Positions 1,212 to 61,279 of a stretch of DNA of 64,000 nucleotides are shown in pieces. Made by a program: the position numbers and the translations under genes. The stretch comes from Nanobdellota archaeon. Its GTDB lineage: Archaea; Nanobdellota; Nanobdellia; Pacearchaeales; GW2011-AR1. The notes beneath the pieces were generated by a model. It worked only from the letters and a program-made list of their open reading frames with translations, ran no database searches and had not been told where the DNA came from. Within the stretch, counting starts at the first letter, position 1; each line of letters opens with the position of its first letter. Where the stretch lies: contig JBBTAN010000017.1 in the NCBI GenBank assembly GCA_038044205.1, positions 30,027 to 94,026 on the forward strand, read 5' to 3'.

Positions 1212-1823
1212 ATGAAAGATTATCCCTCTATCGCACGTTCAAATAAAGCTCCTATTGGAGAACATTGTATAGCTTTCTATAAATATGATGGGAGTAATTT
1301 ACGCTGGGAATGGTCCAAGAAAAAGGGATGGAATAAATTCGGAACTAGGAATCATCTATTTGATAAAAATGATCTACAGTTCGGACAAGCTATTCCTCTT
1401 TTTCTTGAAACCATTGCACCTAAATTAGATGATATAATTAAACAAGAATTTAAAAATATTGATATAGTAACTGTATTTACTGAATATTTTGGTCCATCTT
1501 CTTTTGCTGGACAACACCTTCCTGATGAAAAGAAAGAACTTCGTCTTTTTGATGTTTGTCCTCATAAAAAATGTATGATGAATCCTAAAGATTTTATTAA
1601 TATTTTTGGTTCTTTACCATTTGCAGCCCAAGTTGTTTATGAAGGAATACTCGCTGAACAATTTATTGATGATATAAGAAATAATAAATATCCTGTAAAT
1701 GAAGGTGTTGTCTGTAAAGGAGGTGATAGACATAATCTATGGATGGTAAAAATTAAAACAAATATATATAAACAGAAATTAATTGATACTTATGGAAATA
1801 GATGGAACAATTATTGGGAATAA
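1212..1823 (+). CDS. RNA/DNA ligase-family nucleotidyltransferase, short Rnl-like
   Basis: motif I FYKYDGSN (KxDG), then TEYFG, EGVVCKG and WMVKIKT in the order of ligase motifs III, IV and V. Confidence 0.7.
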   Translation: MKDYPSIARSNKAPIGEHCIAFYKYDGSNLRWEWSKKKGWNKFGTRNHLFDKNDLQFGQAIPLFLETIAPKLDDIIKQEFKNIDIVTVFTEYFGPSSFAGQHLPDEKKELRLFDVCPHKKCMMNPKDFINIFGSLPFAAQVVYEGILAEQFIDDIRNNKYPVNEGVVCKGGDRHNLWMVKIKTNIYKQKLIDTYGNRWNNYWE

Positions 1824-2626: not shown

Positions 2627-2717
2627 GCGGTAGTAGCCGAGCGGCACAGGCAAGGCGCTTAAAACGCCTCGGAAGTAGCAATACTTCTTGTGAGTTCGAA
2701 TCTCACCTACCGCACCA
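2627..2717 (+). tRNA. trnL: tRNA-Leu (anticodon UAA), type II with long variable arm, CCA encoded
   Basis: acceptor gcggtag/ctaccgc; anticodon stem aggcg/cgcct with loop cTTAAaa; variable arm gaagta-gcaa-tacttc; T arm gtgag-ttcgaat-ctcac. Confidence 0.9.
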
Positions 2718-6509: not shown

Positions 6510-6586
6510 GAGGGCGTAGCTCAGTTGGCTAGAACAAAAAGCTTTTAACTTTTAGGCCGTGAGTTCGAGCCTCACCGCTCTCACCA
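6510..6586 (+). tRNA. trnK: tRNA-Lys (anticodon UUU), CCA encoded
   Basis: acceptor gagggcg/cgctctc; anticodon stem aaaag/ctttt with loop cTTTTaa; T arm gtgag-ttcgagc-ctcac; one C-A mismatch in the D stem. Confidence 0.85.
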
Positions 6587-6621
6587 TTTTAACAAACAAA
6601 AATATAGAAAGGAGAGTAAAT

Positions 6622-7200
6622 TTGACTCACATTCCTATTGTAATTGAAAAGACTAAAGGCGGAGAACGCGGCTATGATATTTATAGCCGTTTACTCAAAG
6701 ATAGTATTATTTTTATTGGTGATTCAATTGATGATAATTTAGCTAATTCTGTTATTGCGCAAATGTTATTTCTCAGCCTAGAGAAAAAAGAAAAAGAAAT
6801 ATCTATTTATATTAATAGTCCAGGTGGTAATGTTACTTCAGGCATGGCTATATATGATACTATGCGTTATATTTCTAATCCTATTGCGACTTTCTGTCTT
6901 GGACAATGCGCCAGCATGGCTGCTGTTCTTTTAGCGGCTGGAGATAAAGGAAGACGGTTCTCTCTTCCTAATTCAAGAATTATGATTCATCAACCTTGGG
7001 GCGGGGCGTCGGGAAGCGCGTCTGATATTAGAATCCAAGCTAATGAAATTGAACGTCTAAAAAAATCAATTAATAAAATATTAGTAGATCATTCTGGTAA
7101 ACCTATTGAGACTGTAGAAAAAGATACAGATAGGGATTTTTTTATGAGTCCAAAAGAAGCTATTGAATATGGTTTAATTGATACTGTTCTTGGAGAATAA
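6622..7200 (+). CDS. clpP: ATP-dependent Clp protease proteolytic subunit ClpP
   Basis: TTG start after SD aaaggagag; [35 protein letters not shown] (Ser), MIHQPWGG (His), EAIEYGLID; the track ORF start lies inside the tRNA. Confidence 0.9.
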
Positions 7201-11119: not shown

Positions 11120-11788
11120 ATGAAAAAAATGTCTAAATGGGAACAATCAATTATTAATAAATTCATAAAACAAGCTGAAGCTGAAGATGATAAAAAATTT
11201 CCTAAACAAAATATGGCGAATGTAAATGATATGAAAAAAGAAGGATTACCTTTGCTTCATTACGAAGTAAAATATCAACAAATAGAGGAAATTAAAAAAT
11301 TGATTGATTTGGGGGCTGACATCAACATTAGCGTACCCCCTGTAAATATGACACCTTTACTTTGGGCAATCTCGTATGGATTTTATGAAATTGCTGAATT
11401 ACTTATCAACAAGGGAGCGGATGTTAATAAAAGTGGTGGAATTGTAAAAACAACTCCACTTCAGTGGGCACTCTCAACTAAACGTACATCCTCACCTAAT
11501 ATACTTCCTGAAAAACGAAGAGAACTTGTTAATATACTTATTACTAATGGTGCTGATGTTAATGCCGTGCATTCTTCAAATGGGTATACCCCACTTCATA
11601 TCGCAGCTTCTCATGGTCACAAGGATGCTGTTGCTATGTTGCTCCTTGCTGGTGCAAATGTTAATATCAAAACATATAATGGAGAAACTCCACTGGACCT
11701 TGCGGTAAAGTTAAACCAGAAAAACAAAAGAAAAGGTAAGGAAGTTATAGAATTAATTAAAAAAGCAATTGATGGTAACAACAAATAA
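11120..11788 (+). CDS. ankyrin-repeat protein
   Basis: TPLLWAISYGFYEIAELLINKGADVN and TPLHIAASHGHKDAVAMLLLAGANVN repeats. Confidence 0.9.
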   Translation: MKKMSKWEQSIINKFIKQAEAEDDKKFPKQNMANVNDMKKEGLPLLHYEVKYQQIEEIKKLIDLGADINISVPPVNMTPLLWAISYGFYEIAELLINKGADVNKSGGIVKTTPLQWALSTKRTSSPNILPEKRRELVNILITNGADVNAVHSSNGYTPLHIAASHGHKDAVAMLLLAGANVNIKTYNGETPLDLAVKLNQKNKRKGKEVIELIKKAIDGNNK

Positions 11789-13477: not shown

Positions 13478-13556
13478 GGGCCTGTAGCTCAATTGGTTTT
13501 AGAGCATCGGACTCATAATCCGGGGGTTCCAGGATCATGCCCTGGCAGGCCCACCA
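13478..13556 (+). tRNA. trnM: tRNA-Met-type (anticodon CAU; Ile2 not excluded) with atypical T-loop, CCA encoded
   Basis: perfect acceptor gggcctg/caggccc; D stem gctc/gagc; anticodon loop cTCATaa; T stem ccagg/cctgg but T loop atcatgc lacks TTC. Confidence 0.8.
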
Positions 13557-13662
13557 TTTTCAATCTTTCCCAAAAAAGAAAAAATAAATAAAGGAATCCG
13601 TTTCAATAACATACAATTTATATTAGTCCACAATATTGTGGTTTGATATATGGAGGTCCAAT

Positions 13663-14325
13663 ATGAAAGAACAGGAAAAGATTAAAGCTATTGAGTTGAG
13701 AAAACAAGGGTTATCAGTCAATAAAATAGCAAAAGAAGTTGGTGCTTCAAAAGGAACTGTCAGTGTATGGGTTAGAGATATTCAATTAACAAAAGAACAA
13801 AAGATTCAATTAGCTAAAAATAGAAATCCAGGTTATTCAGGATTTAGCACAAAAGAAATATTAGCAGAAGAAAAAGAAAAAAGAATAGAATCACAAAACA
13901 AAGGGAGAGAAATAGTAAAAAGTTGTGAAGAAGGATATAGGTATGGATGTATGTTATACTGGACAAAAGGTGAAAAAAATAAAAATTGTGTTGTATTCTC
14001 GAATACAGATGTAAATATAATGATTCTATTTATTAATTTTTTGAGAAAATATTTTAACTGCAATAATAAAGATTTTTCTATTTCTGTAACCGCTAATGTC
14101 AATAGTGAATATTCTTCTTCAGATATAGAAAATTTTTGGATCCAGAACCTTGGTATTGAAAAAGAATGTTTAAAAAAATCAACATTCAAGAAAAACGATA
14201 AAGAAAATAATGAATATCCTTATGGGAAATGTCGTATAGCTCTAAATAATACAGATGTAATTCAGCAGATTTATGGCTCTATTCAAGAAATTGGTGGATT
14301 CGTCCAGGAAGAATGGCTATATTGA
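13663..14325 (+). CDS. HTH plus LAGLIDADG-like homing-endonuclease-like protein, family H
   Basis: IELRKQGLSVNKIAKEVGASKGTVSVWV (HTH); CMLYWTKGEKNKN..FINFLRKYF..FW resembles a single-motif LAGLIDADG-type domain from memory. Confidence 0.5.
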   Translation: MKEQEKIKAIELRKQGLSVNKIAKEVGASKGTVSVWVRDIQLTKEQKIQLAKNRNPGYSGFSTKEILAEEKEKRIESQNKGREIVKSCEEGYRYGCMLYWTKGEKNKNCVVFSNTDVNIMILFINFLRKYFNCNNKDFSISVTANVNSEYSSSDIENFWIQNLGIEKECLKKSTFKKNDKENNEYPYGKCRIALNNTDVIQQIYGSIQEIGGFVQEEWLY

Positions 14326-14432
14326 TTTTTTATTTTTTAGAAAAAGAAAAATAAATAAAGGAATTTTTATACCCTATGCCGAATCTAAATATATCCAACA
14401 TCATTTCGATGTTTGGTATAAGGAGATTCGGT

Positions 14433-15143
14433 ATGAAAAAAGAAGAAAAAGCCAAAGCTATTGAATTACGCAAGCAAGGGTTTTCATTGCGTACAATATC
14501 AAAACAACTAGGCGCATGTAGAAGTAGTGTAAGTTATTGGGTTAGAAATGTTTTATTAACAGATGCTCAAAAAACACAATTGATAGCTAATAAAAATAAT
14601 AGTGGATATTTAGGATTTGGAGCAAGAGTTGTAGCTGCTAAAGCTAAAGAAAAAAGGATGGAGTATCAAAATATAGGAATAGAAAAAGCTAGTAATTGCG
14701 ATATAGAATATTCAATGGGATGTATGTTGTATTGGGCCGAAGGTAGTAAAAATAAAAATGCTGTAATATTTACAAACACAGATGTTGATATGATGGTATT
14801 TTTTGTGAATTTTATGAGAAAATATTTCAATTGTAATAATGAAGACTTTGCAGTATCTATAAATACTTATTTAGATAATGGCTACACTGAAATTGAAGTG
14901 GAAAATTTTTGGATGGAAAAATTTAAACTTGACAGAACTTGTTTAAGAAAATCAATTTTTAGAAAAGGTGATGGGACAGGTAAATATCCTTATGGAACAT
15001 GTAGAATAAGTATAGGTAGCACAAAAATAGTTCAACAGATATATGGTTCTATACAAAAATTAATTGGTTTTAAAAGGGAATTGTGGTTAAATGGTAGCAG
15101 GGGTTGGAAAGGCCAAAATAAAAATTTAGAATCAATCAAATAA
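14433..15143 (+). CDS. HTH plus LAGLIDADG-like homing-endonuclease-like protein, family H
   Basis: paralog of 13663: IELRKQGFSLRTISKQLGACRSSVSYWV, CMLYWAEGSKNKN, FVNFMRKYF. Confidence 0.5.
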   Translation: MKKEEKAKAIELRKQGFSLRTISKQLGACRSSVSYWVRNVLLTDAQKTQLIANKNNSGYLGFGARVVAAKAKEKRMEYQNIGIEKASNCDIEYSMGCMLYWAEGSKNKNAVIFTNTDVDMMVFFVNFMRKYFNCNNEDFAVSINTYLDNGYTEIEVENFWMEKFKLDRTCLRKSIFRKGDGTGKYPYGTCRISIGSTKIVQQIYGSIQKLIGFKRELWLNGSRGWKGQNKNLESIK

Positions 15144-15151
15144 TAAAAAAT

Positions 15152-15227
15152 GGGCTAGTGGGGATGGTCTCCTCGCAACGTCTTATAAGCGTTGTTTTCT
15201 CAGTTCAATTCTGAGCTAGGCTTACCA
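15152..15227 (+). tRNA. trnI: non-canonical tRNA-like gene, anticodon UAU (Ile, AUA)
   Basis: T arm ctcag-ttcaatt-ctgag; anticodon stem aacgt/gcgtt with loop cTTATaa; acceptor gggctag/ctaggct has a G-G mismatch; crowded D arm; 3' tail t-acca. Confidence 0.55.
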
Positions 15228-23766: not shown

Positions 23767-23801
23767 ATGCCAGGAAAGGCATAGAGACATGCAAGCATTC
23801 T
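23767..23801 (+). promoter_or_regulatory. degenerate motif-1 element (ATGCCAGGA-N20-CATTCT)
   Basis: one mismatch in the 9-mer. Confidence 0.35.
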
Positions 23802-26730: not shown

Positions 26731-27021
26731 ATGAATCTTAATTTTCAGTCAAACAAGTGCGTTAGTTGTGGTGAGGTTAATTTACCAAAGCATAATGAGT
26801 GTCACAAATGTGGTTTTGATACTGTTAATGGGAATATTAGAAAAATAGGAAAAATTATTAACGGTTATAGTGATGACGTTAATGGTGTTAGAGGATATGT
26901 TACTTACCTTCTTACTGATTTGCACTATTTTTGCAAGCACGAAAATTTAGACTTGAATGAACTTGTTACTGAAGCTGCTAGTAATTTTAATATGGAAATT
27001 TATAGTCAAAACTGTAAATAA
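26731..27021 (+). CDS. zinc-ribbon protein, family L
   Basis: CVSCGE..CHKCG..IRKIGKIINGY parallels 31348. Confidence 0.65.
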   Translation: MNLNFQSNKCVSCGEVNLPKHNECHKCGFDTVNGNIRKIGKIINGYSDDVNGVRGYVTYLLTDLHYFCKHENLDLNELVTEAASNFNMEIYSQNCK

Positions 27022-27042
27022 AAAAAGAAAAGGAGAAGTAAC

Positions 27043-28014
27043 ATGGCGCACGAACTTAGTATTACAAGGGAAGGTATTGTTGAGTTTGCTTGGTCTGGGA
27101 AGACGCCTTGGCATAATCTGGGCGTTAAGGTTGATGGATTGATGGATCCTATTCAGGCGCTTGAACAGGCTCATTTGAACTGGGATGTCAATCTTGTTCC
27201 TCTTACTATGCCTAATGGAAATGTTGTTCCTGATAAGCGGGCAAGTGTTAGGAGTGATACTGGGGCTTATTTGGGTACTGTCGGAACCCAATATACTCCA
27301 CTTCAGAATAAGGAACAGGCTGAGTTTATTAGAGATTTGATCGGAGGGACTGGAACTAAAGTTGAGTGTTGTGGTGCTTTGTTTGGTGGAAGTAAGACTT
27401 TCTGGACTGTTAGGGTTGGTGAAGATATTTATATCAAGCCGGAAGATTCTATTCAGCGTTATCTTATTGTTGCTAATGGCCATGATGGAAGTCTTTCGTT
27501 TAAAGCTTTCTGGTCTCCTATTCGTGTTGTTTGTAACAATACTCTTTCTATGTCTTTGAATAGGAAAGATAATGGTTTTTCTATTCGTCATAAGACTGGG
27601 GTTAAAGACCATGTTGAAGAGGCTAGGGAGATTTTGGGATTGACCGAACTTTATTACAAGAATTTGACTGAAAGTTTTCAGGCTATGGTAAATAAACAAC
27701 TTGATGCGGCTGGATATAAGGAGTATTTGGAATCTATCTTTCCTATTACTGATGGCAAGAAGATTAGTAAGCAACAGGCTGATATGATTCAGGTAATGAA
27801 TGTTAATTTTGAGTCTGGTCGTGGTGCTAATATTGCTGGAAAGACTGTTTGGGGTGCCATGAATAGTGTAACTGAATATATAGATCATCAAAAGAGATTA
27901 AATAAAACTGATGATGTTGTTGATGCTACTTCCCGTCATTTCGAGTCTGTTCTTTATGGACAGGGACAAACTATTAAGCAGAAGGCTTACGATAAGGCGC
28001 TGGCTCTAGTCTAA
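27043..28014 (+). CDS. DUF932 (phage/plasmid-like protein) family
   Basis: MAHELSITREGIVEFAWSGKTPWHNLG..ALEQAHLNWDV..ANGHDGSLSFKAFWSPIRVVCNNTL matches my memory of DUF932/TIGR03299; AAG, CTT and TTG codon bias. Confidence 0.8.
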   Translation: MAHELSITREGIVEFAWSGKTPWHNLGVKVDGLMDPIQALEQAHLNWDVNLVPLTMPNGNVVPDKRASVRSDTGAYLGTVGTQYTPLQNKEQAEFIRDLIGGTGTKVECCGALFGGSKTFWTVRVGEDIYIKPEDSIQRYLIVANGHDGSLSFKAFWSPIRVVCNNTLSMSLNRKDNGFSIRHKTGVKDHVEEAREILGLTELYYKNLTESFQAMVNKQLDAAGYKEYLESIFPITDGKKISKQQADMIQVMNVNFESGRGANIAGKTVWGAMNSVTEYIDHQKRLNKTDDVVDATSRHFESVLYGQGQTIKQKAYDKALALV

Positions 28015-36678: not shown

Positions 36679-36980
36679 TGAAAAATAAAAATATTTTCTT
36701 TGGATTGCGTCATAAAAACACTGGAGAGTTTTGTAGTTTTGAGGCTAATACAAGTTTAAGTATTGGAGGTAGAGAAGCTGGTGATATAGAACATTTTCTA
36801 TGCAAATCTGATAGTTATGATAGTCGTATTTGGACAGTAAATAAAAAAGAAATAGCTGAAAACGCTCGTGTTAATAATACTGAATTATATAATGCGGAAT
36901 ATATGACACCACACCATGATTCTAGTTTTATCCCTGATGATTGGGAAGTTGTTGAACTTGAAATTAAAGTAAAAGACTAA
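36678..36980 (+). CDS. hypothetical protein
   Basis: 100 aa, ATGA-type overlap. Confidence 0.6.
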   Translation: MKNKNIFFGLRHKNTGEFCSFEANTSLSIGGREAGDIEHFLCKSDSYDSRIWTVNKKEIAENARVNNTELYNAEYMTPHHDSSFIPDDWEVVELEIKVKD

Positions 36981-36998
36981 CAAAAAGGAGTAAGTAAC

Positions 36999-37730
36999 AT
37001 GGGGATCACTATTCATTACAAAATGAAGTTTACTGGTACTGAAAAGGAGCTTACTGATAAGCTTGGACTTGTTGCTAATTATGCTAATGAACTTATGTTC
37101 AAAGATGTAAAAAAGAATATTTATAAATTTGATTTCAACACAGATATTAATAAAATTGATTCTTTTACTCCTACTATTATTGTTAAAAATGAAGATCTTC
37201 ATAAATATGCTGGTGCTTATCTCAAACCTATTATGGTTGATGGTAAGTATGTTGTTATTGATGAGGATTATCGTTGGGCTAAAATTCAGACTCAACCTTG
37301 GGAAGATAGACGTAATGAAAATGGAGTTATGGTTTCTTCTACAGTGAAAGGTGGTAATGGTATTTGTCTTGATACTTGGTTTGGAGAAGGTTGTGAACCA
37401 ACTAATTTCGGGTTCTATCGTAAAGGAAAGGGTAAGATTTGGAAGGGGAAATCCTTTACTAAAACTCAATACGCTGAAGAGTTTGTAAAAGCTCATATTT
37501 CTGTTTGCCATCTTTTGAAGTTTGCTCAAAAAATTGGTCTTGTTACTAAAGTTAGTGATGAAGGTGATTTTTACGAGACTAATGATATGACTAAATTGGT
37601 TGATAATTCGGAGGAAAATCTTCAACTTATTGCTGGCATGGTTGATATGTTTAAAAAGATGGATATTAATTTTGATGGTAAGGGACTTGAAGCTGATAGG
37701 CTTCTCAAAAATTATCAACTGAAAACCTGA
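36999..37730 (+). CDS. hypothetical protein
   Basis: 243 aa with SD; about 240 consecutive codons without TTA, CTA or TCA. Confidence 0.7.
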   Translation: MGITIHYKMKFTGTEKELTDKLGLVANYANELMFKDVKKNIYKFDFNTDINKIDSFTPTIIVKNEDLHKYAGAYLKPIMVDGKYVVIDEDYRWAKIQTQPWEDRRNENGVMVSSTVKGGNGICLDTWFGEGCEPTNFGFYRKGKGKIWKGKSFTKTQYAEEFVKAHISVCHLLKFAQKIGLVTKVSDEGDFYETNDMTKLVDNSEENLQLIAGMVDMFKKMDINFDGKGLEADRLLKNYQLKT

Positions 37731-41637: not shown

Positions 41638-41880
41638 ATGAATTTATATCTTATTAAAAATCCTTATTATAGTCCTTATTGTTCCGCTGTAGTTTGTGCA
41701 AAGAATGAAAAAAGTGCAAGGTTGATTCATCCTGATGGATATGAATGGCAAAATAATAAAAAAACATGGAATGATATGTCTGCGTGGTGTAATCCAGAAA
41801 ATGTTATAGTGGAATATCTTGGAAAAGCAAGAAAAGGAATGAAATCTGGAGTTATAGAATTTACTTTTGATAATTCATAG
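41638..41880 (+). CDS. hypothetical protein, family A
   Basis: YCSAVVCAKNEKSARLIHPDG..VIVEYLGKARKGMKSGVI. Confidence 0.65.
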   Translation: MNLYLIKNPYYSPYCSAVVCAKNEKSARLIHPDGYEWQNNKKTWNDMSAWCNPENVIVEYLGKARKGMKSGVIEFTFDNS

Positions 41881-49099: not shown

Positions 49100-49134
49100 A
49101 TGCCCGGAGACGATTTGGACCCTGTTCTTATTAT
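49100..49134 (+). promoter_or_regulatory. motif-1 element (ATGCCCGGA-N20-TATTAT)
   Basis: the hexamer abuts the ggag of the next gene's SD. Confidence 0.55.
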
Positions 49135-51761: not shown

Positions 51762-52970
51762 ATGTCTTCTTCTCTTATTGTTCCTGTCTGTCGCATTAAA
51801 AATAATAGAGAGCATCCTAATGCTTCCCTATTGGGTATTTGTGATGTCCTCGGATATCAAATGGTCGTCCCGCTCAAAGAGGCTCCTGATGGTCCTATTG
51901 CACGTTATTTTAAAAAGAATATGGTAGATGATAAGGGTAAGAAGATTCCAACTAATCAAGATGATCCTGAAGCTGAAGTTATTAATTTGGATTTTATGTA
52001 CCCAGAAGATAAATTAGTTGTATATTTCCCTTTCGACACTATTCTTTCTTCTGAATGGGCTTGTAAATTTGGTGTTCAATCTCTTCTCAAAGGTGCTAAT
52101 AATGATAGAGTAGGAAAGATTAAACTTAGAGGCGAACCAAGTTTTGGACTTGTTGTTGATATTCCTGAAGGTGTTGACTGGCAAGAAGGAACTAATGTTG
52201 CTGATTACTATGGCGCTATTAAATATGAACCGCCAGTTAGACAAATTTGTGGTGATGCTCATTATGCGGACCCTGATATTGATCCTTTCTTTGAAAAATT
52301 TACTGATGTTCAGAATGGTAGAATTTATACTGATATTTTTGAAGACGGTGAAGAAATCATTGCTACAGAAAAGTTGCATGGGTGCAACGGAAAAGTAGCG
52401 CTTATAAATAATAATTATGTTGCTGGTTCAATGAATCATAGAAGGAAGCGTCCAGTTAGGATGGAAGGTGAAAATGTTATTGAATGTTCTTTTGATGATA
52501 AGGAAATGAAAGAAAATATATATTGGTTTCCTTGGACTGTTTCTACTGTTAGGACAATGATGGAAAGTATAAAAAATATGGGGAATATTGTTCTTTATGG
52601 TGAGATTTATGGAGGGAGTATACAGAGTCTTACTTATGGAATTCCAAAAGGTAAAGGATTAGGATTCAGGGCTTTCGGACTAACAGTAAATGGTAAGTAT
52701 ATGGACTGGGACGATTTTGAATCAACTTGTAAAAAATATGGAGTTGATATTGTTCCTGTTATTTATAGGGGGCCATTTAGCATGGCTATTGCTAAACAAC
52801 ATGCTAATGGAAAAACTACTCTTACTAAAGATGGACAAATTAGAGAAGGAGTAGTTTGCTATCCAGTAAAAGAAAGAACAAATTCAAGGATTGGTAGATG
52901 TATACTGAAATATATTTCGGATGAATATTTACTTTCCAAACATCAAGATAATGACACAAAGGATATTTAA
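51762..52970 (+). CDS. ATP-dependent RNA ligase with N-terminal OB-like domain (Rnl5/DraRnl-like architecture)
   Basis: N-terminal VCRIKNNREHPNASLLGICDVLGYQMVV; motif I TEKLHGCNG (KxHG); later YGEIYGGSIQ, REGVVCYPV and ILKYIS in ligase motif order. Confidence 0.75.
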   Translation: MSSSLIVPVCRIKNNREHPNASLLGICDVLGYQMVVPLKEAPDGPIARYFKKNMVDDKGKKIPTNQDDPEAEVINLDFMYPEDKLVVYFPFDTILSSEWACKFGVQSLLKGANNDRVGKIKLRGEPSFGLVVDIPEGVDWQEGTNVADYYGAIKYEPPVRQICGDAHYADPDIDPFFEKFTDVQNGRIYTDIFEDGEEIIATEKLHGCNGKVALINNNYVAGSMNHRRKRPVRMEGENVIECSFDDKEMKENIYWFPWTVSTVRTMMESIKNMGNIVLYGEIYGGSIQSLTYGIPKGKGLGFRAFGLTVNGKYMDWDDFESTCKKYGVDIVPVIYRGPFSMAIAKQHANGKTTLTKDGQIREGVVCYPVKERTNSRIGRCILKYISDEYLLSKHQDNDTKDI

Positions 52971-53020: not shown

Positions 53021-53042
53021 AATTGATAGTATATTTTCTCTC

Positions 53043-53077
53043 ATGCCCGGAGCAAATCGCTCTCAATGCCCTATTAT
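53043..53077 (+). promoter_or_regulatory. motif-1 element (ATGCCCGGA-N20-TATTAT)
   Basis: motif 2 follows 16 nt later. Confidence 0.6.
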
Positions 53078-53093
53078 TCGTTATAGGCCAATT

Positions 53094-53530: not shown

Positions 53531-53983
53531 ATGTCTATTACTTTTGATAAATCTATTGAGAATAAAGTAATAGAAATGTTAGATAGAGGACCAATTGATC
53601 TTATTATTTCAAGGATTTTAGAAGTATGGAATCCTTTTGATATATTAATGAGTAAAAATTTAGAAGAAGTTAAAATTGATGTATTGCACTATATAAAAAA
53701 CAAAGATTTCCAGAGAAAATATTTAGAAAATATATTTGGTTTAAATGAAAATTATATTAGAGATCTTAATTATGATATTCGCAGAATAGCTTGGTTTGTA
53801 TATAACGGTTGGGAAGATGCTGTAGATATTGATGTTGGCATAAATGGATTTGATACCAGATTTATTTGCCATGACGGCAATCATAGGTTGTGTGCGGCAA
53901 TAATAAAAGGAGATAAGACTATTAAAGCAAAAGTTAGTGGAGGTTGTGATATTATTTCTTATTATTGTGGATTAGTTGACTAA
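53531..53983 (+). CDS. ParB/Srx-like nuclease-domain protein
   Basis: FICHDGNHRLCAAIIKGDKTIKAKV matches the DGxHR core of ParB-like nuclease domains. Confidence 0.6.
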   Translation: MSITFDKSIENKVIEMLDRGPIDLIISRILEVWNPFDILMSKNLEEVKIDVLHYIKNKDFQRKYLENIFGLNENYIRDLNYDIRRIAWFVYNGWEDAVDIDVGINGFDTRFICHDGNHRLCAAIIKGDKTIKAKVSGGCDIISYYCGLVD

Positions 53984-53995
53984 AAAGGAGAATAA

Positions 53996-54277
53996 ATGAA
54001 TAAAAATTATTATGATATTCGTATTTCTATTTTATTGGAAAAGAAAAATAATATAAATGATATTATTTTTATATTAAATAGATTTTGTTCTGATTTTTCT
54101 TCAAAGGAGACAGAAGAGGGATTGGTTGTCAATTTTAAATCATTTCCCAGTTATTTAGAAGATAAAGATATTGCCACTGGGTTGAAGGATATTATTTTTG
54201 AGACTAATGGTAAACCTTGTAAAATTGAGATGATTTTTATCCATACTAAACAAGTAGAAAATAATTTCTTTTTCTAA
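53996..54277 (+). CDS. small protein, family D (1 of 6)
   Basis: YYDIRISIL..NGKPCKIEMIFIH. Confidence 0.6.
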   Translation: MNKNYYDIRISILLEKKNNINDIIFILNRFCSDFSSKETEEGLVVNFKSFPSYLEDKDIATGLKDIIFETNGKPCKIEMIFIHTKQVENNFFF

Positions 54278-54287
54278 AGGAGAAAAA

Positions 54288-54581
54288 ATGAATAAATTTT
54301 ATAGAATTCATATTACTGTGAAAGATTTGCCAAAAGATAGAATTTCTATTATTTTTGATAAATTGCAGGAATATCACTGGTCTTTTTGCTTAAACGATGA
54401 TGATATTTATCTTGATAAAGATATTTGTTATATATATTATTATACAGTAGAAGATGTATCTATTGTATATCCTCCTGAAGCTACCGAAGAAACAATTAAA
54501 ACAAGATTGAAAAATATTATAACTAATGATAATAAATATTTTTATGAGATAAATATCGTTTTGGAACAATGCAGTTGTTAA
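54288..54581 (+). CDS. small protein, family D (2 of 6, most divergent)
   Basis: FYRIHITV..; same size and position in the array. Confidence 0.55.
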   Translation: MNKFYRIHITVKDLPKDRISIIFDKLQEYHWSFCLNDDDIYLDKDICYIYYYTVEDVSIVYPPEATEETIKTRLKNIITNDNKYFYEINIVLEQCSC

Positions 54582-54603
54582 AACAAAAAAGGGAATAAAT
54601 AAA

Positions 54604-54888
54604 ATGGACAAAAATGAATATGAAGTTTCTATTGATATAGAATTTGAAGAAAATGATCGCGAAATAAGTATTGGATGTGCTTTAAAAAAGATTAGTAAAA
54701 CTTTTGCTTTTTATGGCGGGAATAATAAATTTAGAGCTTTCTCTATGTATGTAGAATCATATTTACTTGACCATGAACTTGCTGAATCAATTAAAAATGC
54801 TGTTTGGGACGCCAATAGAAGAAAATGTAAAATTGATATTAATATTTCTCATAGAGTATATAATAATTTTTCTTATGAAAGTAAATAA
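54604..54888 (+). CDS. small protein, family D (3 of 6)
   Basis: EYEVSIDI..NRRKCKIDINISH. Confidence 0.6.
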   Translation: MDKNEYEVSIDIEFEENDREISIGCALKKISKTFAFYGGNNKFRAFSMYVESYLLDHELAESIKNAVWDANRRKCKIDINISHRVYNNFSYESK

Positions 54889-54902
54889 AAAGGAAAATAA
54901 AA

Positions 54903-55205
54903 ATGAGAACGACTTTCAATATTGATAATATTCATAATTATGAAATAAGTATTGAAACTAAAGATGATATTCAATTTGACTTTATTTCAGAATCATTGAA
55001 GAAGTTTGGAAAATTTTATAGCAATAAATATAAAGATAATTTTGGAGGAAATTGGTATTCTGAAGGGATTTATACAGATCTTACAAAAGAGAATTTGCTT
55101 AAAGATATACGACAAACTATTTTTACTGCAAATAATCAATCTTTTGCTGTGGATATTATGATTACGTTCAATGTTAGAGAGACATATAGCTTTGATTCTT
55201 GGTGA
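54903..55205 (+). CDS. small protein, family D (4 of 6)
   Basis: NYEISIET..NNQSFAVDIMITF; stop TGA overlaps the motif-1 ATG. Confidence 0.6.
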   Translation: MRTTFNIDNIHNYEISIETKDDIQFDFISESLKKFGKFYSNKYKDNFGGNWYSEGIYTDLTKENLLKDIRQTIFTANNQSFAVDIMITFNVRETYSFDSW

Positions 55206-55239
55206 TGCCCGGAAAGAGTTTGTACAGGGTAAGTATTAT
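55205..55239 (+). promoter_or_regulatory. motif-1 element (ATGCCCGGA-N20-TATTAT-N5-GTGGC) embedded in a coding start
   Basis: exact 9-mer; the same nucleotides encode MPGKSLYRVSIIYCGK of the family D gene. Confidence 0.5.
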
Positions 55240-55525
55240 CTATTGTGGCAAAATTATGGTTAAAGGTGCAGATGAAAAAATGATTGGTGATATTTTTTCT
55301 AATTTGAAAAATTATATTACTTCCATCAATATGAATGAAACTAAATTTGGATTATATTTTTATGCTAATAAGTTCTCTACGGAATTTGATAAAAAACAAT
55401 TGTCTGAACTTCTTTATTGTAGAATCAATAGTATCAATGGAAAACCCTGCGATATTGAATTTTTTATTTCTCATAGTATTACAGATAGGTTTTATTTTCC
55501 TCTCCCTCAAAAGAAAGAAAAATGA
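55205..55525 (+). CDS. small protein, family D (5 of 6), apparently starting on the motif-1 ATG
   Basis: the homologous N-terminal strand LYRVSIIY (compare HYRVSVRII in 55809) lies upstream of the internal ATGs 55256 and 55280; NGKPCDIEFFISH. Confidence 0.55.
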   Translation: MPGKSLYRVSIIYCGKIMVKGADEKMIGDIFSNLKNYITSINMNETKFGLYFYANKFSTEFDKKQLSELLYCRINSINGKPCDIEFFISHSITDRFYFPLPQKKEK

Positions 55526-55794
55526 AAATGAAAAAGAAATTGTATTTGTATAAAATTTGGATGGATGGTGATGCTGGTTGGGACGAATATGATTCTGCTG
55601 TTGTTTGCGCTGAAAATGTAGGTGAAGCTAAAAGAATTCATCCTGGCGGTTATCCTTTTAATAGGCGCACTGACAAGTGGGAACATAATTATGGTTGGAC
55701 AACTGATCCTAATGATGTCCAAGTTCAGTATATTGGAGTTGCAAATAAAGATATGGAACCAGGTGTTGTAGTTGCTTCTTTTAATGCCGGTTAA
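55522..55794 (+). CDS. hypothetical protein, family A
   Basis: YDSAVVCAENVGEAKRIHPGG..VQVQYIGVANKDMEPGVVVASF. Confidence 0.65.
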   Translation: MKMKKKLYLYKIWMDGDAGWDEYDSAVVCAENVGEAKRIHPGGYPFNRRTDKWEHNYGWTTDPNDVQVQYIGVANKDMEPGVVVASFNAG

Positions 55795-55808
55795 AAAAAG
55801 GAGAGAAC

Positions 55809-56099
55809 ATGGAAAGTGAAAATCATTATCGAGTTTCAGTTAGAATTATTAATTTTAATGTAAATAAAGCATTATATATTCTTTCTTTTCTTTATGATTG
55901 TGAATTTACTATTTCTTGTAACACTACCCCTGCTATCTATGGATATAAAGAAGATTATTTTTCTCTTTGTGCAAATGAAAGTAATATTGCTGATAGTATT
56001 AGTAAAGAAATACTTAAAGCAAATAATGGTCAGTGCGATATCGAGATTGATATTTATACAAAGACTGAAAAGAAATATTCTTTTAAGGACAAGGAGTAA
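55809..56099 (+). CDS. small protein, family D (6 of 6)
   Basis: HYRVSVRII..NGQCDIEIDIYT. Confidence 0.6.
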   Translation: MESENHYRVSVRIINFNVNKALYILSFLYDCEFTISCNTTPAIYGYKEDYFSLCANESNIADSISKEILKANNGQCDIEIDIYTKTEKKYSFKDKE

Positions 56100-56325: not shown

Positions 56326-56568
56326 ATGAAAGGGATTTCTGCTGAAAAGAAAAAGAAATATATAAAATCAACTGGTGGTTTTTGTATTTATTGTGGAAAG
56401 AAAAAGTTGGTGGTTGGTCCAATTTATTTTTATAGTTATGGAATTTTTAGAACAGTTATTTGTAGTTCTTGTAAAAAATTGTGGGAAGATAAATTTATTT
56501 TATCCAATGTTGTTGATTTGGTGGAAGATGAAAAGAAAGTAAGTAAAAAACAAAAAAGGAGTAAGTAA
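56326..56568 (+). CDS. zinc-ribbon protein, family N
   Basis: CIYCGK..CSSCKKLWEDKFILSNV. Confidence 0.6.
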   Translation: MKGISAEKKKKYIKSTGGFCIYCGKKKLVVGPIYFYSYGIFRTVICSSCKKLWEDKFILSNVVDLVEDEKKVSKKQKRSK

Positions 56569-56569
56569 C

Positions 56570-57286
56570 ATGAACGATGTTGAAATTGATGAGACTGTTG
56601 AGAAGATCAAGGAATTTTCCAATAAGGGTATCCCTTGTTATGTTTGGGGTAGGATTACTGGACCTTATTCTGGTTGTTTTTATCTTAATGTTATTGGTAT
56701 TGTGAAAGATGATAAGTGTTACGTAACCGCTGAACTTAATTCTTATCTTTCTTACAAGCAGTATGTCGCCCCTTCTGATTACAAGTCTGATTATCTTACA
56801 GTTGGTTGTGTAAAAATTGAAAATATTGAGGATGTTTTGGGAAGGGGTTATAGGGAGATTAAAGTTAAGCCCCTTACTGATATTGTTGAGGATGTTCCTT
56901 ATGCTTGTGTTGGACAGGTTATTGATATGATTGATGACCTTGGTTATGATAGGCCGGAAGGATTTGTTTGTAAGTGTTGCGATACCCCTTTTGAGGATAA
57001 GGATGATGTTATGTATCTTGAGGGAGAGTTTAGAGGCAATGGTGGTATTGGTATTGAAGTTGGTGCGCCAGTTTGTCAAAACTGCTATTTGGAACGTCAT
57101 TGTTCTTATTGTGGGGAGGAAATTGAAATTTATCAAGGGGATCTTGATGAGGATAGTCATTGTATTTATTGCTGCAAGGAAAAGATTTGTATTAAGTGTG
57201 GAGAAAAAATTAAAATTGATTGGTATAATAAGGAAAAGGATGTTGAGAATTTTATAAAGGGAATCTGTAGCGATTGCGCGGAGTAA
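56570..57286 (+). CDS. multi-zinc-finger Cys-rich protein
   Basis: 238 aa; CKCCD, CQNC, CSYCG, CIYCC, CIKCG and CSDC pairs; about 197 codons without TTA, CTA or TCA. Confidence 0.7.
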   Translation: MNDVEIDETVEKIKEFSNKGIPCYVWGRITGPYSGCFYLNVIGIVKDDKCYVTAELNSYLSYKQYVAPSDYKSDYLTVGCVKIENIEDVLGRGYREIKVKPLTDIVEDVPYACVGQVIDMIDDLGYDRPEGFVCKCCDTPFEDKDDVMYLEGEFRGNGGIGIEVGAPVCQNCYLERHCSYCGEEIEIYQGDLDEDSHCIYCCKEKICIKCGEKIKIDWYNKEKDVENFIKGICSDCAE

Positions 57287-58111: not shown

Positions 58112-58411
58112 ATGAATTATAGTAATATTAGTAATGATGAATGGTCCGCTACTAAACATATTAGAAATGCTAAATTCAATTATGAATTAGCGGTATTTGA
58201 ATTCATGCGAGATAAATGGATTCTTGATCCTAAATATAAAAATAAATTTATTGCTATTCATAATGGAAAGATAATTGCTATTGGGGATGATTTTGTTGCT
58301 CTTGCTAGAGAAGTAAGAGATTTATCAGAGATAGAAGGACCAATTCCTATTTGTTTTGTTGAGGAAAAGAATAATATAGAACATTTTGATGGAACAGTAT
58401 TGTCGAATTAA
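58112..58411 (+). CDS. hypothetical protein (DUF5678-like pattern, weak)
   Basis: NKFIAIHNGKIIAIGDDFVALAREV. Confidence 0.6.
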   Translation: MNYSNISNDEWSATKHIRNAKFNYELAVFEFMRDKWILDPKYKNKFIAIHNGKIIAIGDDFVALAREVRDLSEIEGPIPICFVEEKNNIEHFDGTVLSN

Positions 58412-58433
58412 AAATAGTGAAAGGAGTAAGTGA

Positions 58434-58727
58434 ATGAATAAAAGTGATTTTCTTGGTCTTGTTTCTTCTTCTGTGGACAATAATCCTGATTGGGTGAAGG
58501 ATATTATGTCGGCTATATCTCTTGCTATTACAGATAAATATGAGAAAGAAATGAATAAAAAAGCAATTGCTGATGTTGCTATTTGTCATTTGATGAATGA
58601 AAAAATTAACTCTGAAAAGATCAATGCTTGGGGTCGAAGAGTTATTGTTAAAGCTATTAATGATGGTAGTTTTGGCGGGACTGAATGGGCAACTGAAATA
58701 ATTGAAAAGTTGACTAAAAAGGAATAA
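58434..58727 (+). CDS. hypothetical protein
   Basis: 97 aa with SD. Confidence 0.6.
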   Translation: MNKSDFLGLVSSSVDNNPDWVKDIMSAISLAITDKYEKEMNKKAIADVAICHLMNEKINSEKINAWGRRVIVKAINDGSFGGTEWATEIIEKLTKKE

Positions 58728-58730
58728 AAA

Positions 58731-59051
58731 ATGAACGATTATAAGACTGTTGTTGTATTTAGAAAGTTGAAAGATAGTGGAGATATTCTTGCTTTGTTCC
58801 CACAGGAGTATTCTGATATTACTGGAAATCTTTGTTCTTCTTTTGAACATGTAGGCGGTCATGGTGGGGCTGATTATTCTCATTGTATTAAGCAAACTCT
58901 TCCTTGTAATCCTGCTGAATATGAAGATACCAAAAACGAACTAGAAAAAATTGGATATGATCTTATTATTAAAAATAGTTCTCGGCCAAATAGAGATAAA
59001 AAGATCAGGTTGAGGGAATTGAAAGAATTGGACCTTAATAGGAGTAAGTAA
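58731..59051 (+). CDS. hypothetical protein
   Basis: 106 aa with SD. Confidence 0.6.
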   Translation: MNDYKTVVVFRKLKDSGDILALFPQEYSDITGNLCSSFEHVGGHGGADYSHCIKQTLPCNPAEYEDTKNELEKIGYDLIIKNSSRPNRDKKIRLRELKELDLNRSK

Positions 59052-59630: not shown

Positions 59631-59942
59631 ATGAAAAAGAATAAGTTGAATTTGTATAGACTTTGGGTTGATGAAAAAGATTATTATCCTGGTTTTTTTG
59701 ATTTTTGTGGGAAATATGAATCTGTTATTGTTTGTGCGAAGAATGAAAAGGAAGCTAAATTAATTACCCCTACTAAAGAAGATCAAAAATTACAAGATGA
59801 TGGAACATGGTTTTATGATCATGGATGGGTCACATCTCCAGATAAAGTTCATATCCAACATATTGGAGTTGCTAATGAAAATATAAAACCAGGTATTGTA
59901 GTTGCTTCTCTTGTTGGAGAAAGTGATATATATCCAGATTGA
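59631..59942 (+). CDS. hypothetical protein, family A
   Basis: YESVIVCAKNEKEAKLITP..VHIQHIGVANENIKPGIVVASL. Confidence 0.65.
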   Translation: MKKNKLNLYRLWVDEKDYYPGFFDFCGKYESVIVCAKNEKEAKLITPTKEDQKLQDDGTWFYDHGWVTSPDKVHIQHIGVANENIKPGIVVASLVGESDIYPD

Positions 59943-60751: not shown

Positions 60752-61279
60752 ATGACAAGTGTTGATCTTTGTCCAAGGATATATGTTGCTTCTCTTGCTG
60801 ATTACAATAATGGTAATCTTCATGGAATTTGGATTGATCTTGATGAAAATACTGATGTTGATGAAGTTTTTGAGAAGATTAATAAAATGCTAAGTGAATC
60901 TAAATATCCTGTTGCAGAAGAGTTTGCTATACATGATTATGATGATTTTGGAGGTATGGAAATTAATGAAAATGAATCAATTGAAAATGTAGTTGAAATG
61001 GCTAATTATCTTACTAAACATGGTGAAGCCTTTGCTCTTTGGTCTAATAATGTTGGGTTTGAAGGAGCTAAAGATAATTTTGAAGAGGCTTATGTTGGAC
61101 ATTATGATTCTAAAAAGCAATATGCTGAACAGTTTGCTGATGATATTTATTCAGCAAAGGATTTGGGAGAATTAGCTATTTATATTGATTGGGAAAAGTA
61201 TGCTGATGATTTGTTTAGTAATGATTATTGCGATATAGAAGGTAATAGATCTGGTATTTATGTCTTTCGTAACATCTAA
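60752..61279 (+). CDS. ardA: ArdA antirestriction protein (DNA mimic, anti type I R-M)
   Basis: CPRIYVASLADYNNGNLHGIWIDLDENTDVDEV..VAEEFAIHDYDDFGG..YIDWEKYADDLF..IYVF matches the ArdA family signature closely; highly acidic. Confidence 0.9.
   Translation: MTSVDLCPRIYVASLADYNNGNLHGIWIDLDENTDVDEVFEKINKMLSESKYPVAEEFAIHDYDDFGGMEINENESIENVVEMANYLTKHGEAFALWSNNVGFEGAKDNFEEAYVGHYDSKKQYAEQFADDIYSAKDLGELAIYIDWEKYADDLFSNDYCDIEGNRSGIYVFRNI

Follow-up and report, generated by a model that had tools for sequence, protein, structure and literature searches.

The locus studied here raises the question of whether six short, consecutive open reading frames (D1-D6), encoded within 2.1 kb and interrupted by one unrelated gene, belong to a single protein family, and what their products could do. 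The window (the whole 64-kb stretch of DNA that was analysed) contains all six at 53996-56099, as an earlier sequence-only reading had proposed, all on the + strand and coding for proteins of 93-106 aa (Table 1).

Table 1. Positions of the D genes and of other features in the window
Feature	Position	Strand	Description
ClpP-type protease gene	6559-7200		Also matches phage head-maturation protease families
Family-A paralogue	41638-41880
Upstream motif-1 copy	53041-53090	+	ATGCCCGGA at 53043, TATTAT 20 nt downstream
Gene previously labelled Cys-His peptidase-like	53147-53518
Gene previously labelled ParB-like nuclease	53531-53983
D1	53996-54277	+	93 aa; NCBI AABY32_01530; AAGGAG Shine-Dalgarno
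D2	54288-54581	+	97 aa; most diverged member
D3	54604-54888	+	94 aa; most central member; the one modelled
D4	54903-55205	+	100 aa; 7-residue N-terminal extension; Phe replaces Cys
Motif-1 copy	55203-55253	+	TGATGCCCGGAAAGAG-N-TATTAT-N-TGTGGC
D5	55205-55525	+	106 aa from ATG 55205
Family-A gene	55522-55794	+	90 aa; phrog_5444, E 3.7e-15, function unknown
D6	55809-56099	+	96 aa; AAGGAG Shine-Dalgarno
Family-A paralogue	59631-59942
ArdA anti-restriction gene (PF07275)	60752-61279		4.7 kb downstream of the array

A tandem array of diverged paralogues

Within the set, BLASTP links D1 with D3 (E-value 4e-8), D1 with D5 (2e-6), D3 with D4 (1.5e-5), and D3 with D6 (3e-4). In addition, a leave-one-out HMM test was performed, in which each held-out member was compared with 1000 shuffles of itself. 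Scores of 29-42 bits were obtained for D1 and D3-D6 and of 17 bits for D2, with best shuffles at 9-19 bits, and every member outscored all of its own shuffles, D2 being the weakest (D1, 40.1 bits versus 12.0 for the best shuffle; D2, 17.1 versus 11.2; D3, 42; D4, 28.7; the long form of D5, 32.1; D6, 30.7 versus 18.8). D2 also aligns collinearly with the profile of the remaining members (hhalign, P = 6e-4). As judged from these sequence comparisons, it is confirmed that the six ORFs form one paralogous family, with homology beyond chance. Since the copies share only 16-30% identity, the array is old and stable, and the duplications that produced it are ancient; similarity at the DNA level is confined to one 42-nt stretch.

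A Shine-Dalgarno sequence (AAGGAG, AAGGGA or AAGGAA) precedes each of D1-D4 and D6, the TGA stop of D4 overlaps the ATG at 55205 (TGATG), and the six members occupy different reading frames. The possibility of a single long gene with recoded stop codons was rejected because of these different frames and separate Shine-Dalgarno sequences, and because genes of the window terminate at all three standard stop codons (TAA, TGA, and TAG). Five of the six proteins are mildly acidic (pI 4.7-5.7, net charge -2 to -6), D5 being the sole basic member (pI 9.1).

No seventh copy was found among the other ORFs of the window (best E 0.45). A HMMER search of 1.84 billion representative proteins returned only the six D copies and one metagenomic relative of 105 aa, P0007 (E 2.5e-4), with no further copies from elsewhere on the contig, the gene products of which are in the searched collections; word-indexed searches of 5.8 billion proteins gave nothing beyond P0007. 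The contig of P0007 is AT-rich (26.5% GC) and the gene beside P0007 matches PHROG families, and no neighbours common to this contig and the window were found. Neither megablast with the locus nor tblastn with P0007 produced a match in 50,697 phage records, and scans of IMG/VR that started from P0007 or from the RNA ligase likewise returned nothing. The array is carried by one genome only and shows no strain or copy-number variation, all five Hainich contigs being 100% identical to the window. The locus, with six co-oriented homologous genes and a single relative elsewhere, exceeds the three adjacent copies required of a tandem paralogue array, and as a lineage-specific expansion it is of an ordinary type.

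Small host-interaction genes are also duplicated in tandem in the gene accordions of large DNA viruses, such as that of poxvirus K3L, which are recent, near-identical, and variable in copy number. The D array resembles them in the duplication of a small gene in tandem, followed by divergence. In contrast to accordions, the D copies retain only 16-30% identity and all recovered contigs are 100% identical.

Searches of Pfam, PHROGs, NCBIfam, and PADLOC with all D members gave no significant match and place them in no known defence or anti-defence family (PADLOC, PHROGs), but the curated libraries searched hold few anti-defence proteins, so that the lack of a match does not exclude such a function. 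In Pfam no member has a match at E ≤ 1, in PHROGs none falls below E 0.009, and the best PADLOC match, Cas5b, is not significant and concerns D1 only (E 0.0076). The library matches to DUF4833, tRNA_NucTransf2, TrAA12, and Cas5b (E 0.008-0.09) were set aside as sub-threshold noise. A LAGLIDADG endonuclease, the best PDB sequence match of the family profile (E 0.024), is not credible.

Predicted fold and conservation of the core

The fold was predicted with AlphaFold2 from a seven-sequence alignment (the six D proteins and P0007), with D3 as the modelled member. The resulting model (pLDDT 92.2, pTM 0.81) comprises β1 (4-14), α1 (20-30), β2 (35-39), β3 (42-52), α2 (56-71), and β4 (75-83), and hydrophobic residues recur at i,i+2 in the strands and i,i+4 in the helices. 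We confidently assign the family, on the basis of this model, to the ferredoxin-like β-α-β-β-α-β sandwiches, a class in which both helices pack against the same side of a four-stranded sheet. The D3 model is the sole reliable one, the single-sequence prediction for D2 (pLDDT 56) being too poor to use; the earlier suggestion that all six share a fold is supported by the high-confidence family model and by the fit of all members to one profile.

The top Foldseek matches in the PDB are all ferredoxin-like, and generic (TM ~0.5, range 0.45-0.58; best E 1.2e-3), comprising PII-like SbtB, PII, ACT, and DUF77 proteins, designed ferredoxins, and ribosomal protein S6. The best among them are PII-like proteins (Synechocystis SbtB, 7r32 and 6wue; PII, 1hwu; 3dfe), which share with D a length of ~90-110 aa and the same sandwich, yet reach a TM of only 0.45-0.54. 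ACT and DUF77/MTH1187/YkoF-type proteins (2nyi, 1zpv, 1yqh, 1vk8, 2eky) are of the same fold class and size (E 2.5e-3 to 1.1e-2). Since SbtB binds AMP, ADP, cAMP, and c-di-AMP, these matches could indicate that the D proteins bind or sponge up small ligands in the manner of PII or ACT proteins, forming oligomers with nucleotides or metabolites at their subunit interfaces and, for example, sequestering host signalling molecules. We consider this quite unlikely: the matches are weak, designed ferredoxins and S6 scoring equally, identity to PII-like proteins is 9-20%, and neither the Pfam P-II and ACT models nor any other family HMM is matched. In the D3 model a two-residue β2-β3 turn takes the place of the PII T-loop, only D2 having an insertion in this region (12 residues), and the conserved nucleotide-binding loop, whether Gly-rich or basic, is absent. 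The β1-α1 loop lacks the conserved Gly and any other ligand-contacting residue of the ACT/DUF77 proteins, and in D is among the most variable parts (positions 14-19, column entropy 1.9-2.25 bits). Moreover, six copies with unrelated surfaces would suit one common ligand poorly.

The same fold class includes the RRM/S6-type nucleic-acid binders (S6 permutants reach a TM of 0.58), and with an RNA ligase gene 1 kb upstream of the array it could be imagined that the D proteins act as its nucleic-acid-binding partners. This is exceedingly improbable, since all members but D5 are acidic, no RRM match is found in Pfam, and at positions 7, 9, 11, and 78 the exposed β1/β4 face bears Glu, Asp, and Ser instead of the aromatic and basic residues of RNP1 and RNP2, which RRMs expose on β3 and β1. 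Across the family, the exposed β1 positions 7, 9, 11, and 13 carry E/D/R, S, or mixed polar residues, and every copy has an acidic residue or Asn at position 78 in β4.

Conservation is limited to ~20 hydrophobic core positions, retained in all copies including D2, and to one Asn after helix 2. Apart from this residue, N71, located in the α2-β4 turn, the family has no invariant polar residue and the A-N-x-x-x-C loop no invariant position; the alignment offers no conserved candidate residue for catalysis or ligand binding. The Cys of the C-terminal motif, previously read as a feature of all six members, is present in D1, D3, D5, and D6, whereas D2 has Tyr and D4 Phe at this position, so that it is better regarded as a core residue than as a ligand. 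D2 also lacks the C-terminal aromatic tail.

Pairwise identity is 45% over the 20 core columns and 13% over the 73 other columns, for which 7.7% is expected from composition. The earlier description of a conserved scaffold with a diverged surface agrees with these values, while the variable binding surfaces proposed along with it are putative. A kept core with a diverged surface is the default pattern of any old paralogous family, and a neutral, slowly decaying family would likewise show core-only conservation.

Genomic setting, the motif-1 element, and the start of D5

Around the array, small ORFans form a unidirectional block in DNA of 27% GC. Besides the features in Table 1, the window contains DUF932, two RNA ligases, ankyrin proteins, four tRNAs, and ~20 other small paralogue families. 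The family-A gene interrupts the array as reported before and has no similarity to D. In contrast, the labels previously given to two genes upstream, ParB-like nuclease and Cys-His peptidase-like, received no significant support when the two genes were compared with Pfam, PHROG, NCBIfam, and the sequences of the PDB. An 'HDGNHR' motif, noted by eye in the first of these genes, is the only remaining support for its label. For the upstream 150-aa gene, tblastn of phage records gave one weak and partial match, to a Caulobacter phage.

Judging from the gene content of the window, the contig, labelled Nanoarchaeota at NCBI, is probably a ~500-kb AT-rich huge phage. No capsid or terminase gene was seen in the window, and the 10 kb to its right hold more small ORFans and one metallophosphatase, with no phage hallmark gene. 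As most of the window is unannotated, guilt by association is a weak guide to the function of the array.

A search of the literature for tandem small-protein arrays in huge phages gave a single precedent, that of the paralogues of ΦKZ. This phage has paralogous head proteins (gp92-97, 153, 162, and 163), some of which are injected and several individually dispensable, and paralogous baseplate proteins (gp131-135) (PMC12676376). As in the D array, several diverged copies, partly in tandem, are found in a very large phage genome, and by analogy the D proteins may be virion-associated or injected internal proteins, similar to these head and inner-body families, a view with which the match of the ClpP-type protease gene to head-maturation protease families would be consistent. 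However, the ΦKZ proteins are structural or injected, belong to a Pfam family (PF12699), and are far larger than the ~95-aa orphan D proteins, which resemble neither PF12699 nor any of the structural PHROGs. With no structural gene nearby, and an RNA ligase, ArdA, and small ORFans as neighbours, a virion role seems very unlikely.

A further element of the locus, the motif-1 repeat, proved to be real: 13 copies of ATGCCCGGA-N20-TATTAT, on the + strand only, align with a fixed 20-nt spacing (repeat family D16). A scan of IMG/VR with this pattern gave 41 single matches, roughly as many as chance was estimated to produce, and the pattern recurred within none of the contigs. One copy lies upstream of the array, where a gap of 176 nt follows the RNA ligase gene, and possibly marks the boundary of the gene block bearing D1-D4. 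Another extends over the stop codon of D4 and, in the long form of D5, over the first ~16 codons, which makes the start and the first strand of D5 ambiguous. Because of this overlap with a non-coding repeat, the archives differ in their annotation: the ENA call starts at ATG 55205 (106 aa) and the NCBI call at ATG 55256 (89 aa, P0005). A third option, ATG 55280 (81 aa), has AAGGTG 11 nt upstream; in the short forms most or all of β1 is lost. The D5 segment 'YRVSI', which would fit the N-terminal strand described earlier, falls inside the DNA repeat; an independent profile instead aligns D5 without gaps from residue 16, and the family Tyr then corresponds to D5 Y13.

The repeat over the 5' end of D5, on which gene callers disagree, could also mean that the array is largely relict, with one or few functional copies and the others drifting toward loss: D5 would have been damaged by motif-1, and D2, with only 17 bits and neither the Cys nor the C-terminal tail, would have lost the family motifs, in line with a surface identity near chance. 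Yet each of the six ORFs remains intact and of family length, even though identity is low and stop codons arise easily in DNA of 27% GC, and the core positions and ribosome-binding sites are kept. That all six are open with their own ribosome-binding sites argues for retained, separate functions, and we find a relict array decidedly unlikely.

Proposed origin and role of the D proteins

In the reading that we favour, one small gene would have undergone ancient tandem duplication, giving rise to the six protein-coding paralogues in a unidirectional accessory, non-structural region of a huge-phage-like element. Each would encode a soluble ~95-aa protein with the ferredoxin-like sandwich, in which selection may have kept only the hydrophobic core, the Asn after helix 2, and the C-terminal aromatic tail, while nearly every surface position drifted to near saturation. 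As no catalytic or ligand-binding set of polar residues is conserved, the products are most likely stoichiometric binding modules rather than enzymes; these small modules may act during infection, and each copy may have a host or defence partner of its own. The genes, their homology, fold, core-only conservation, and setting are results of this analysis; the binding role, the targets, and the specialisation of the copies are proposals. Taken as a whole, this account of ancient ferredoxin-like paralogues that bind host or defence factors stoichiometrically in a phage-like element is put forward tentatively, as plausible but somewhat short of probable.

Among the small counter-defence proteins of phages and plasmids, ArdA offers a parallel in the same window, being likewise small, mostly acidic, non-enzymatic, and located in a unidirectional accessory block, but without any sequence or fold relationship to D. 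A DNA-mimic mechanism is not indicated for the D proteins, because they are only mildly acidic and D5 is basic.

In a bolder reading, which we consider unlikely, the six same-fold, surface-diversified binders would constitute a new anti-defence or host-takeover family, each member neutralising a different host factor or immune component, in a ~500-kb phage of anoxic groundwater that possibly infects ultra-small (CPR or DPANN-associated) hosts. In this scenario two transcription units, expressed at different times, would meet at the internal motif-1 copy, which might also give rise to a short D5 lacking β1.

In practical terms the benefit of this analysis is modest: for an orphan family that neither Pfam nor PHROG models, it provides a confident fold assignment and defined core positions, and the absence of conserved catalytic residues narrows experiments on D to binding assays. 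Two archive issues are also flagged, the conflicting annotation of the D5 start and the presence of a probable huge phage contig under a Nanoarchaeota label. Should each copy prove to act on a host or defence protein of its own, nature would here have retargeted one scaffold six times within a compact array, which would then be a source of new inhibitors.

Six tandem paralogues of one small-protein family

The region 53996-56099 consists of seven tightly packed plus-strand ORFs, namely the six paralogous family D genes (D1-D6) and a 90-aa gene unrelated to them. The latter matches phrog_5444 (E 3.7e-15; function unknown) and has two paralogues in the window, in agreement with the sequence-only reading, in which a member of another small-gene family, A, interrupts the array. 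The D genes differ in reading frame, each of D1-D4 and D6 is preceded by an SD-like sequence, 7-10 nt upstream of its ATG, and all three stop codons terminate ORFs in the window (TAA 118, TGA 28, TAG 20; n = 166 ORFs), which rules out one long recoded gene. Five of the products are mildly acidic (pI 4.7-5.7) and D5 is basic (pI 9.1).

Table. Features of the array, motif-1 copies and other annotated genes (window positions)
Feature	Position	Strand	Size or support
D1	53996-54277	+	93 aa
D2	54288-54581	+	97 aa
D3	54604-54888	+	94 aa
D4	54903-55205	+	100 aa
D5	55205-55525	+	106 aa in longest ATG form
Gene unrelated to family D	55522-55794	+	90 aa; between D5 and D6
D6	55809-56099	+	96 aa
Motif-1, ATG positions	11002, 11810, 20404, 22402, 23767, 29107, 31875, 39243, 45772, 49100, 53043, 55205, 61335	+	
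Motif-1, 13th copy	55203-55253	+	overlaps D4 stop (TGATG) and first ~16 codons of long D5 ORF
ClpP	ORF from 6559	+	Pfam 1e-80; also phage head-maturation protease PHROGs
DUF932	27043-28014		E 3e-52
ArdA anti-restriction protein	60752-61279		E 7.5e-35
RNA ligase	51762-52970		Pfam
Second RNA-ligase-like ORF	1212-1823		
Ankyrin-repeat protein	11120-11788		E 6e-35; second ankyrin ORF elsewhere
tRNA-Leu (TAA)	2627-2717		among small ORFs
tRNA-Lys (TTT)	6510-6586		among small ORFs
tRNA-Met (CAT)	13478-13556		among small ORFs
tRNA-Ile (TAT)	15152-15223		among small ORFs

The proposal that the six genes form a single family is borne out by BLASTP within the set (D1-D3 4e-8, D1-D5 2e-6, D3-D4 1.5e-5, D3-D6 3e-4), with identities among copies of 16-30%, and by leave-one-out tests, in which a profile from the other members scored the held-out protein against 1000 shuffles of the same protein. 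The scores were 42 bits for D3, 40 for D1, 38 for P0007 (a metagenomic relative from outside the window), 32 for D5, 31 for D6, 29 for D4 and 17 for D2, with 9-19 bits for the top-scoring shuffle of each, indicating similarity beyond chance. D2 is the outlier; given its hhalign comparison with the other members (P = 6e-4, collinear alignment) and its position and length, it is a probable but not a certain member.

When the 389 window ORFs of 40 aa or longer were scanned with the six-member profile, a seventh member did not emerge (best E 0.45). In 5.8 billion proteins, word-indexed searches matched only P0007 and the window's own proteins, which appear at NCBI as the hypothetical proteins AABY32_01530-01560 ('MAG: Nanoarchaeota archaeon'), and HMMER, run in full over 1.84 billion cluster representatives, recovered the six copies and P0007 as the one outsider (105 aa, E 2.5e-4). 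P0007 has the N-terminal YYEVDIEV, an internal FTANGESCDIEVKM and the YSF tail of the family; it comes from metagenomic contigs of 0.8-1.2 kb with 26.5-27.8% GC, and its adjoining gene matches PHROG families of unknown function. Since the collections searched include the contig's own gene products and held no further copies, the family appears confined to the array. Searches of Pfam, PHROGs, NCBIfam, PADLOC and PDB sequences gave nothing significant; as a sequence family, D is new to these libraries.

Predicted fold and conserved core

The structure prediction and fold search suggested in the sequence-only reading point to a ferredoxin-like α/β sandwich. AlphaFold2, run on D3 with a 7-sequence alignment, gave a mean pLDDT of 92.2 and a pTM of 0.81 (90.6-92.2 across five models), with β1 (4-14), α1 (20-30), β2 (35-39), β3 (42-52), α2 (56-71) and β4 (75-83), after which the tail is unstructured. 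Against the PDB, Foldseek returned only generic members of the same fold class (best E 1.2e-3, TM 0.45-0.58 among the better matches), including PII-like SbtB, PII, ACT domains, DUF77/MTH1187-type proteins, ribosomal protein S6 permutants and de novo designed ferredoxins, and the viral library gave eIF2α domains and uncharacterised phage proteins at an equal level. The modelled fold class is thus clear, but the matches do not single out a superfamily within it. A role as ligand binder or sponge of the PII/ACT type would suit this fold, but the T-loop of PII-type proteins is missing from the D3 model, the loop residues are not conserved and the TM scores are weak, so that such a role is unlikely.

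On the D3 model, the conserved columns are alternating, inward-facing positions of β1 (Y6, V8, I10, I12) and β4 (C75, I77, I79, I81), helix positions with i/i+4 spacing in α1 (I23, L27, I30) and α2 (L59, I63, V67), a few other hydrophobic residues, and F89/Y91 of the tail. Pairwise identity is 45% in the 20 core columns and 13% in the other 73, against a composition expectation of 7.7%, which agrees with the strong divergence described previously for the rest of each protein. The sole invariant polar residue is N71, which directly follows α2 and precedes the α2-β4 turn; an acidic residue or Asn occupies position 78, and Ser predominates at position 9. The C-terminal Cys motif reported earlier does contain a conserved position, C75, but the Cys itself is replaced by Tyr in D2 and by Phe in D4, which argues for a core residue and against a role in metal binding or catalysis. 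The conserved columns mapped onto the model revealed no candidate for an active site or a ligand pocket.

The array is an old tandem expansion of a small ferredoxin-like protein; all six reading frames are still intact at family length and retain the positions that determine the fold. As nothing beyond the core is conserved, we tentatively favour the D proteins being non-enzymatic binding modules, each copy of which would have its own partner. Binding of RNA is very improbable, as the exposed sheet face is acidic.

The motif-1 element and the start of D5

Motif-1, the repeat element noted before, could be confirmed: the plus strand of the window has 12 copies of ATGCCCGGA, the minus strand has none, and one further plus-strand copy reads ATGCCAGGA. 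TATTAT recurs downstream, at exactly 20 nt in 8/13 copies and at 21 nt in one, with hexamer variants at the equivalent place in the remaining four. The architecture is (T-rich)-ATGCCCGGA-N20-TATTAT, often followed by TGTGG, the T-rich run upstream being frequent. All copies except one lie in intergenic spacers (12/13), eight of them 0-25 nt after the upstream stop, and the next start follows at about 47-234 nt. The 'MPG...' mini-ORFs opened by the element have 3-33 codons and are unrelated outside the motif, which suggests a signal at the DNA or RNA level rather than a peptide. It appears promoter-like in architecture; the hexamer spacing does not fit sigma-70. In the copy at 49100 an SD directly follows TATTAT, and those at 23767 and 29107 have a perfect ATGCC...GGCAT hairpin instead. 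Scanning IMG/VR for the element revealed no further genome or contig with several copies.

As previously described, motif-1 also interrupts the array, its thirteenth copy lying over the D4 stop and the D5 5' end. The strand 'YRVSI' proposed for D5 proved to be partly encoded by the TATTAT box. With a profile built without D5, the protein aligns gap-free from residue 16 and the family's invariant Tyr is D5 Y13, the codon of which also lies inside the extended repeat. Start calls for D5 differ, with 106 aa in ENA and 89 aa from ATG 55256 in NCBI, and a third ATG is found at 55280, with AAGGTG 11 nt upstream. The start at 55256 keeps just the tail of β1, a core strand of the family model, and that at 55280 drops all of it; hence, D5 is either translated through motif-1 or a damaged copy. 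That the array is partly relict seems improbable, and it is doubtful that it is an inhibitor scaffold retargeted six times, with an internal transcription signal dividing it.

Genomic setting and possible partners

The window comes from the 499,814-bp contig Hain_H43_01um_R3_3_length_499814 (ERZ1292626; 0.1-µm fraction, anoxic Hainich groundwater well H43), at roughly 154-218 kb, reversed. It has 27-34% GC (about 29% overall), G > C on the plus strand throughout, and about 166 small ORFs (87% coding), with nearly all plausible genes on the plus strand; the pattern of small ORFs continues 10 kb past it. Long minus-strand ORFs of 180-314 aa (e.g. 26947-27891, 36885-37718, 56495-57160, 58347-58895) are antisense to well-supported plus-strand genes and have low-complexity translations rich in Ile, Asn and Phe; rather than genes, they look like shadow ORFs that arise from the AT-rich, skewed composition. 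PHROG matches are many. The content points to a huge phage, or failing that a large mobile element, that was binned with an archaeon, and not to a chromosome of Nanoarchaeota, although we only infer this, since no capsid or terminase genes were seen in the stretch examined.

At E <= 1e-4, Pfam matched only about a dozen of the 150 plus-strand ORFs scanned, among them those for ClpP, DUF932, ArdA, RNA ligase, ankyrin repeats and HTH proteins. The GTG start used for ClpP is overlapped by the Lys tRNA and is probably too far upstream; tRNA-Ile(TAT) was called by ARAGORN and falls below the Rfam tRNA gathering score. Two paralogues that lie side by side (13636-14325, 14376-15143; about 230-255 aa) and carry HTH_23-type domains at the N-terminus are flanked by tRNA-Met and tRNA-Ile. 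The labels 'ParB-like' and 'Cys-His peptidase-like', given earlier to two genes upstream of the array, received no significant support. The former was based on the 'HDGNHR' motif of 53531-53983 (150 aa). A search of 5.8 billion proteins found no homologue of this product beyond the genome itself, Pfam and PDB gave no match, and a hypothetical Caulobacter phage CcrPW protein matched it only in part (48% over 35% of the product).

ArdA, DUF932, the two RNA-ligase-like genes and the ankyrin protein are candidate counter-defence or host-interaction genes across the block. Because the array lies amid accessory genes, among them ones for anti-restriction and RNA repair, the partners of the D proteins would most plausibly be host or defence components. 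Virion or injected proteins, for which the paralogue families of ΦKZ are a precedent (PMC12676376), are quite unlikely here.

BLASTP alone finds about 20 small paralogue families within the 64-kb window, indicating that genes have been duplicated throughout this genome and still are. Duplications much younger than family D, with 70-83% DNA identity, were observed at 4868-5167/5176-5475, 41952-42375/46157-46586, 12120-12315/12919-13111 and 14213-14300/14983-15070; some are tandem, and one pair is 4.2 kb apart. Very large phage genomes routinely contain tandem families of small ORFans, and the ferredoxin-like fold is among the commonest known. Thus, despite its new sequence family, the array is of an ordinary kind.
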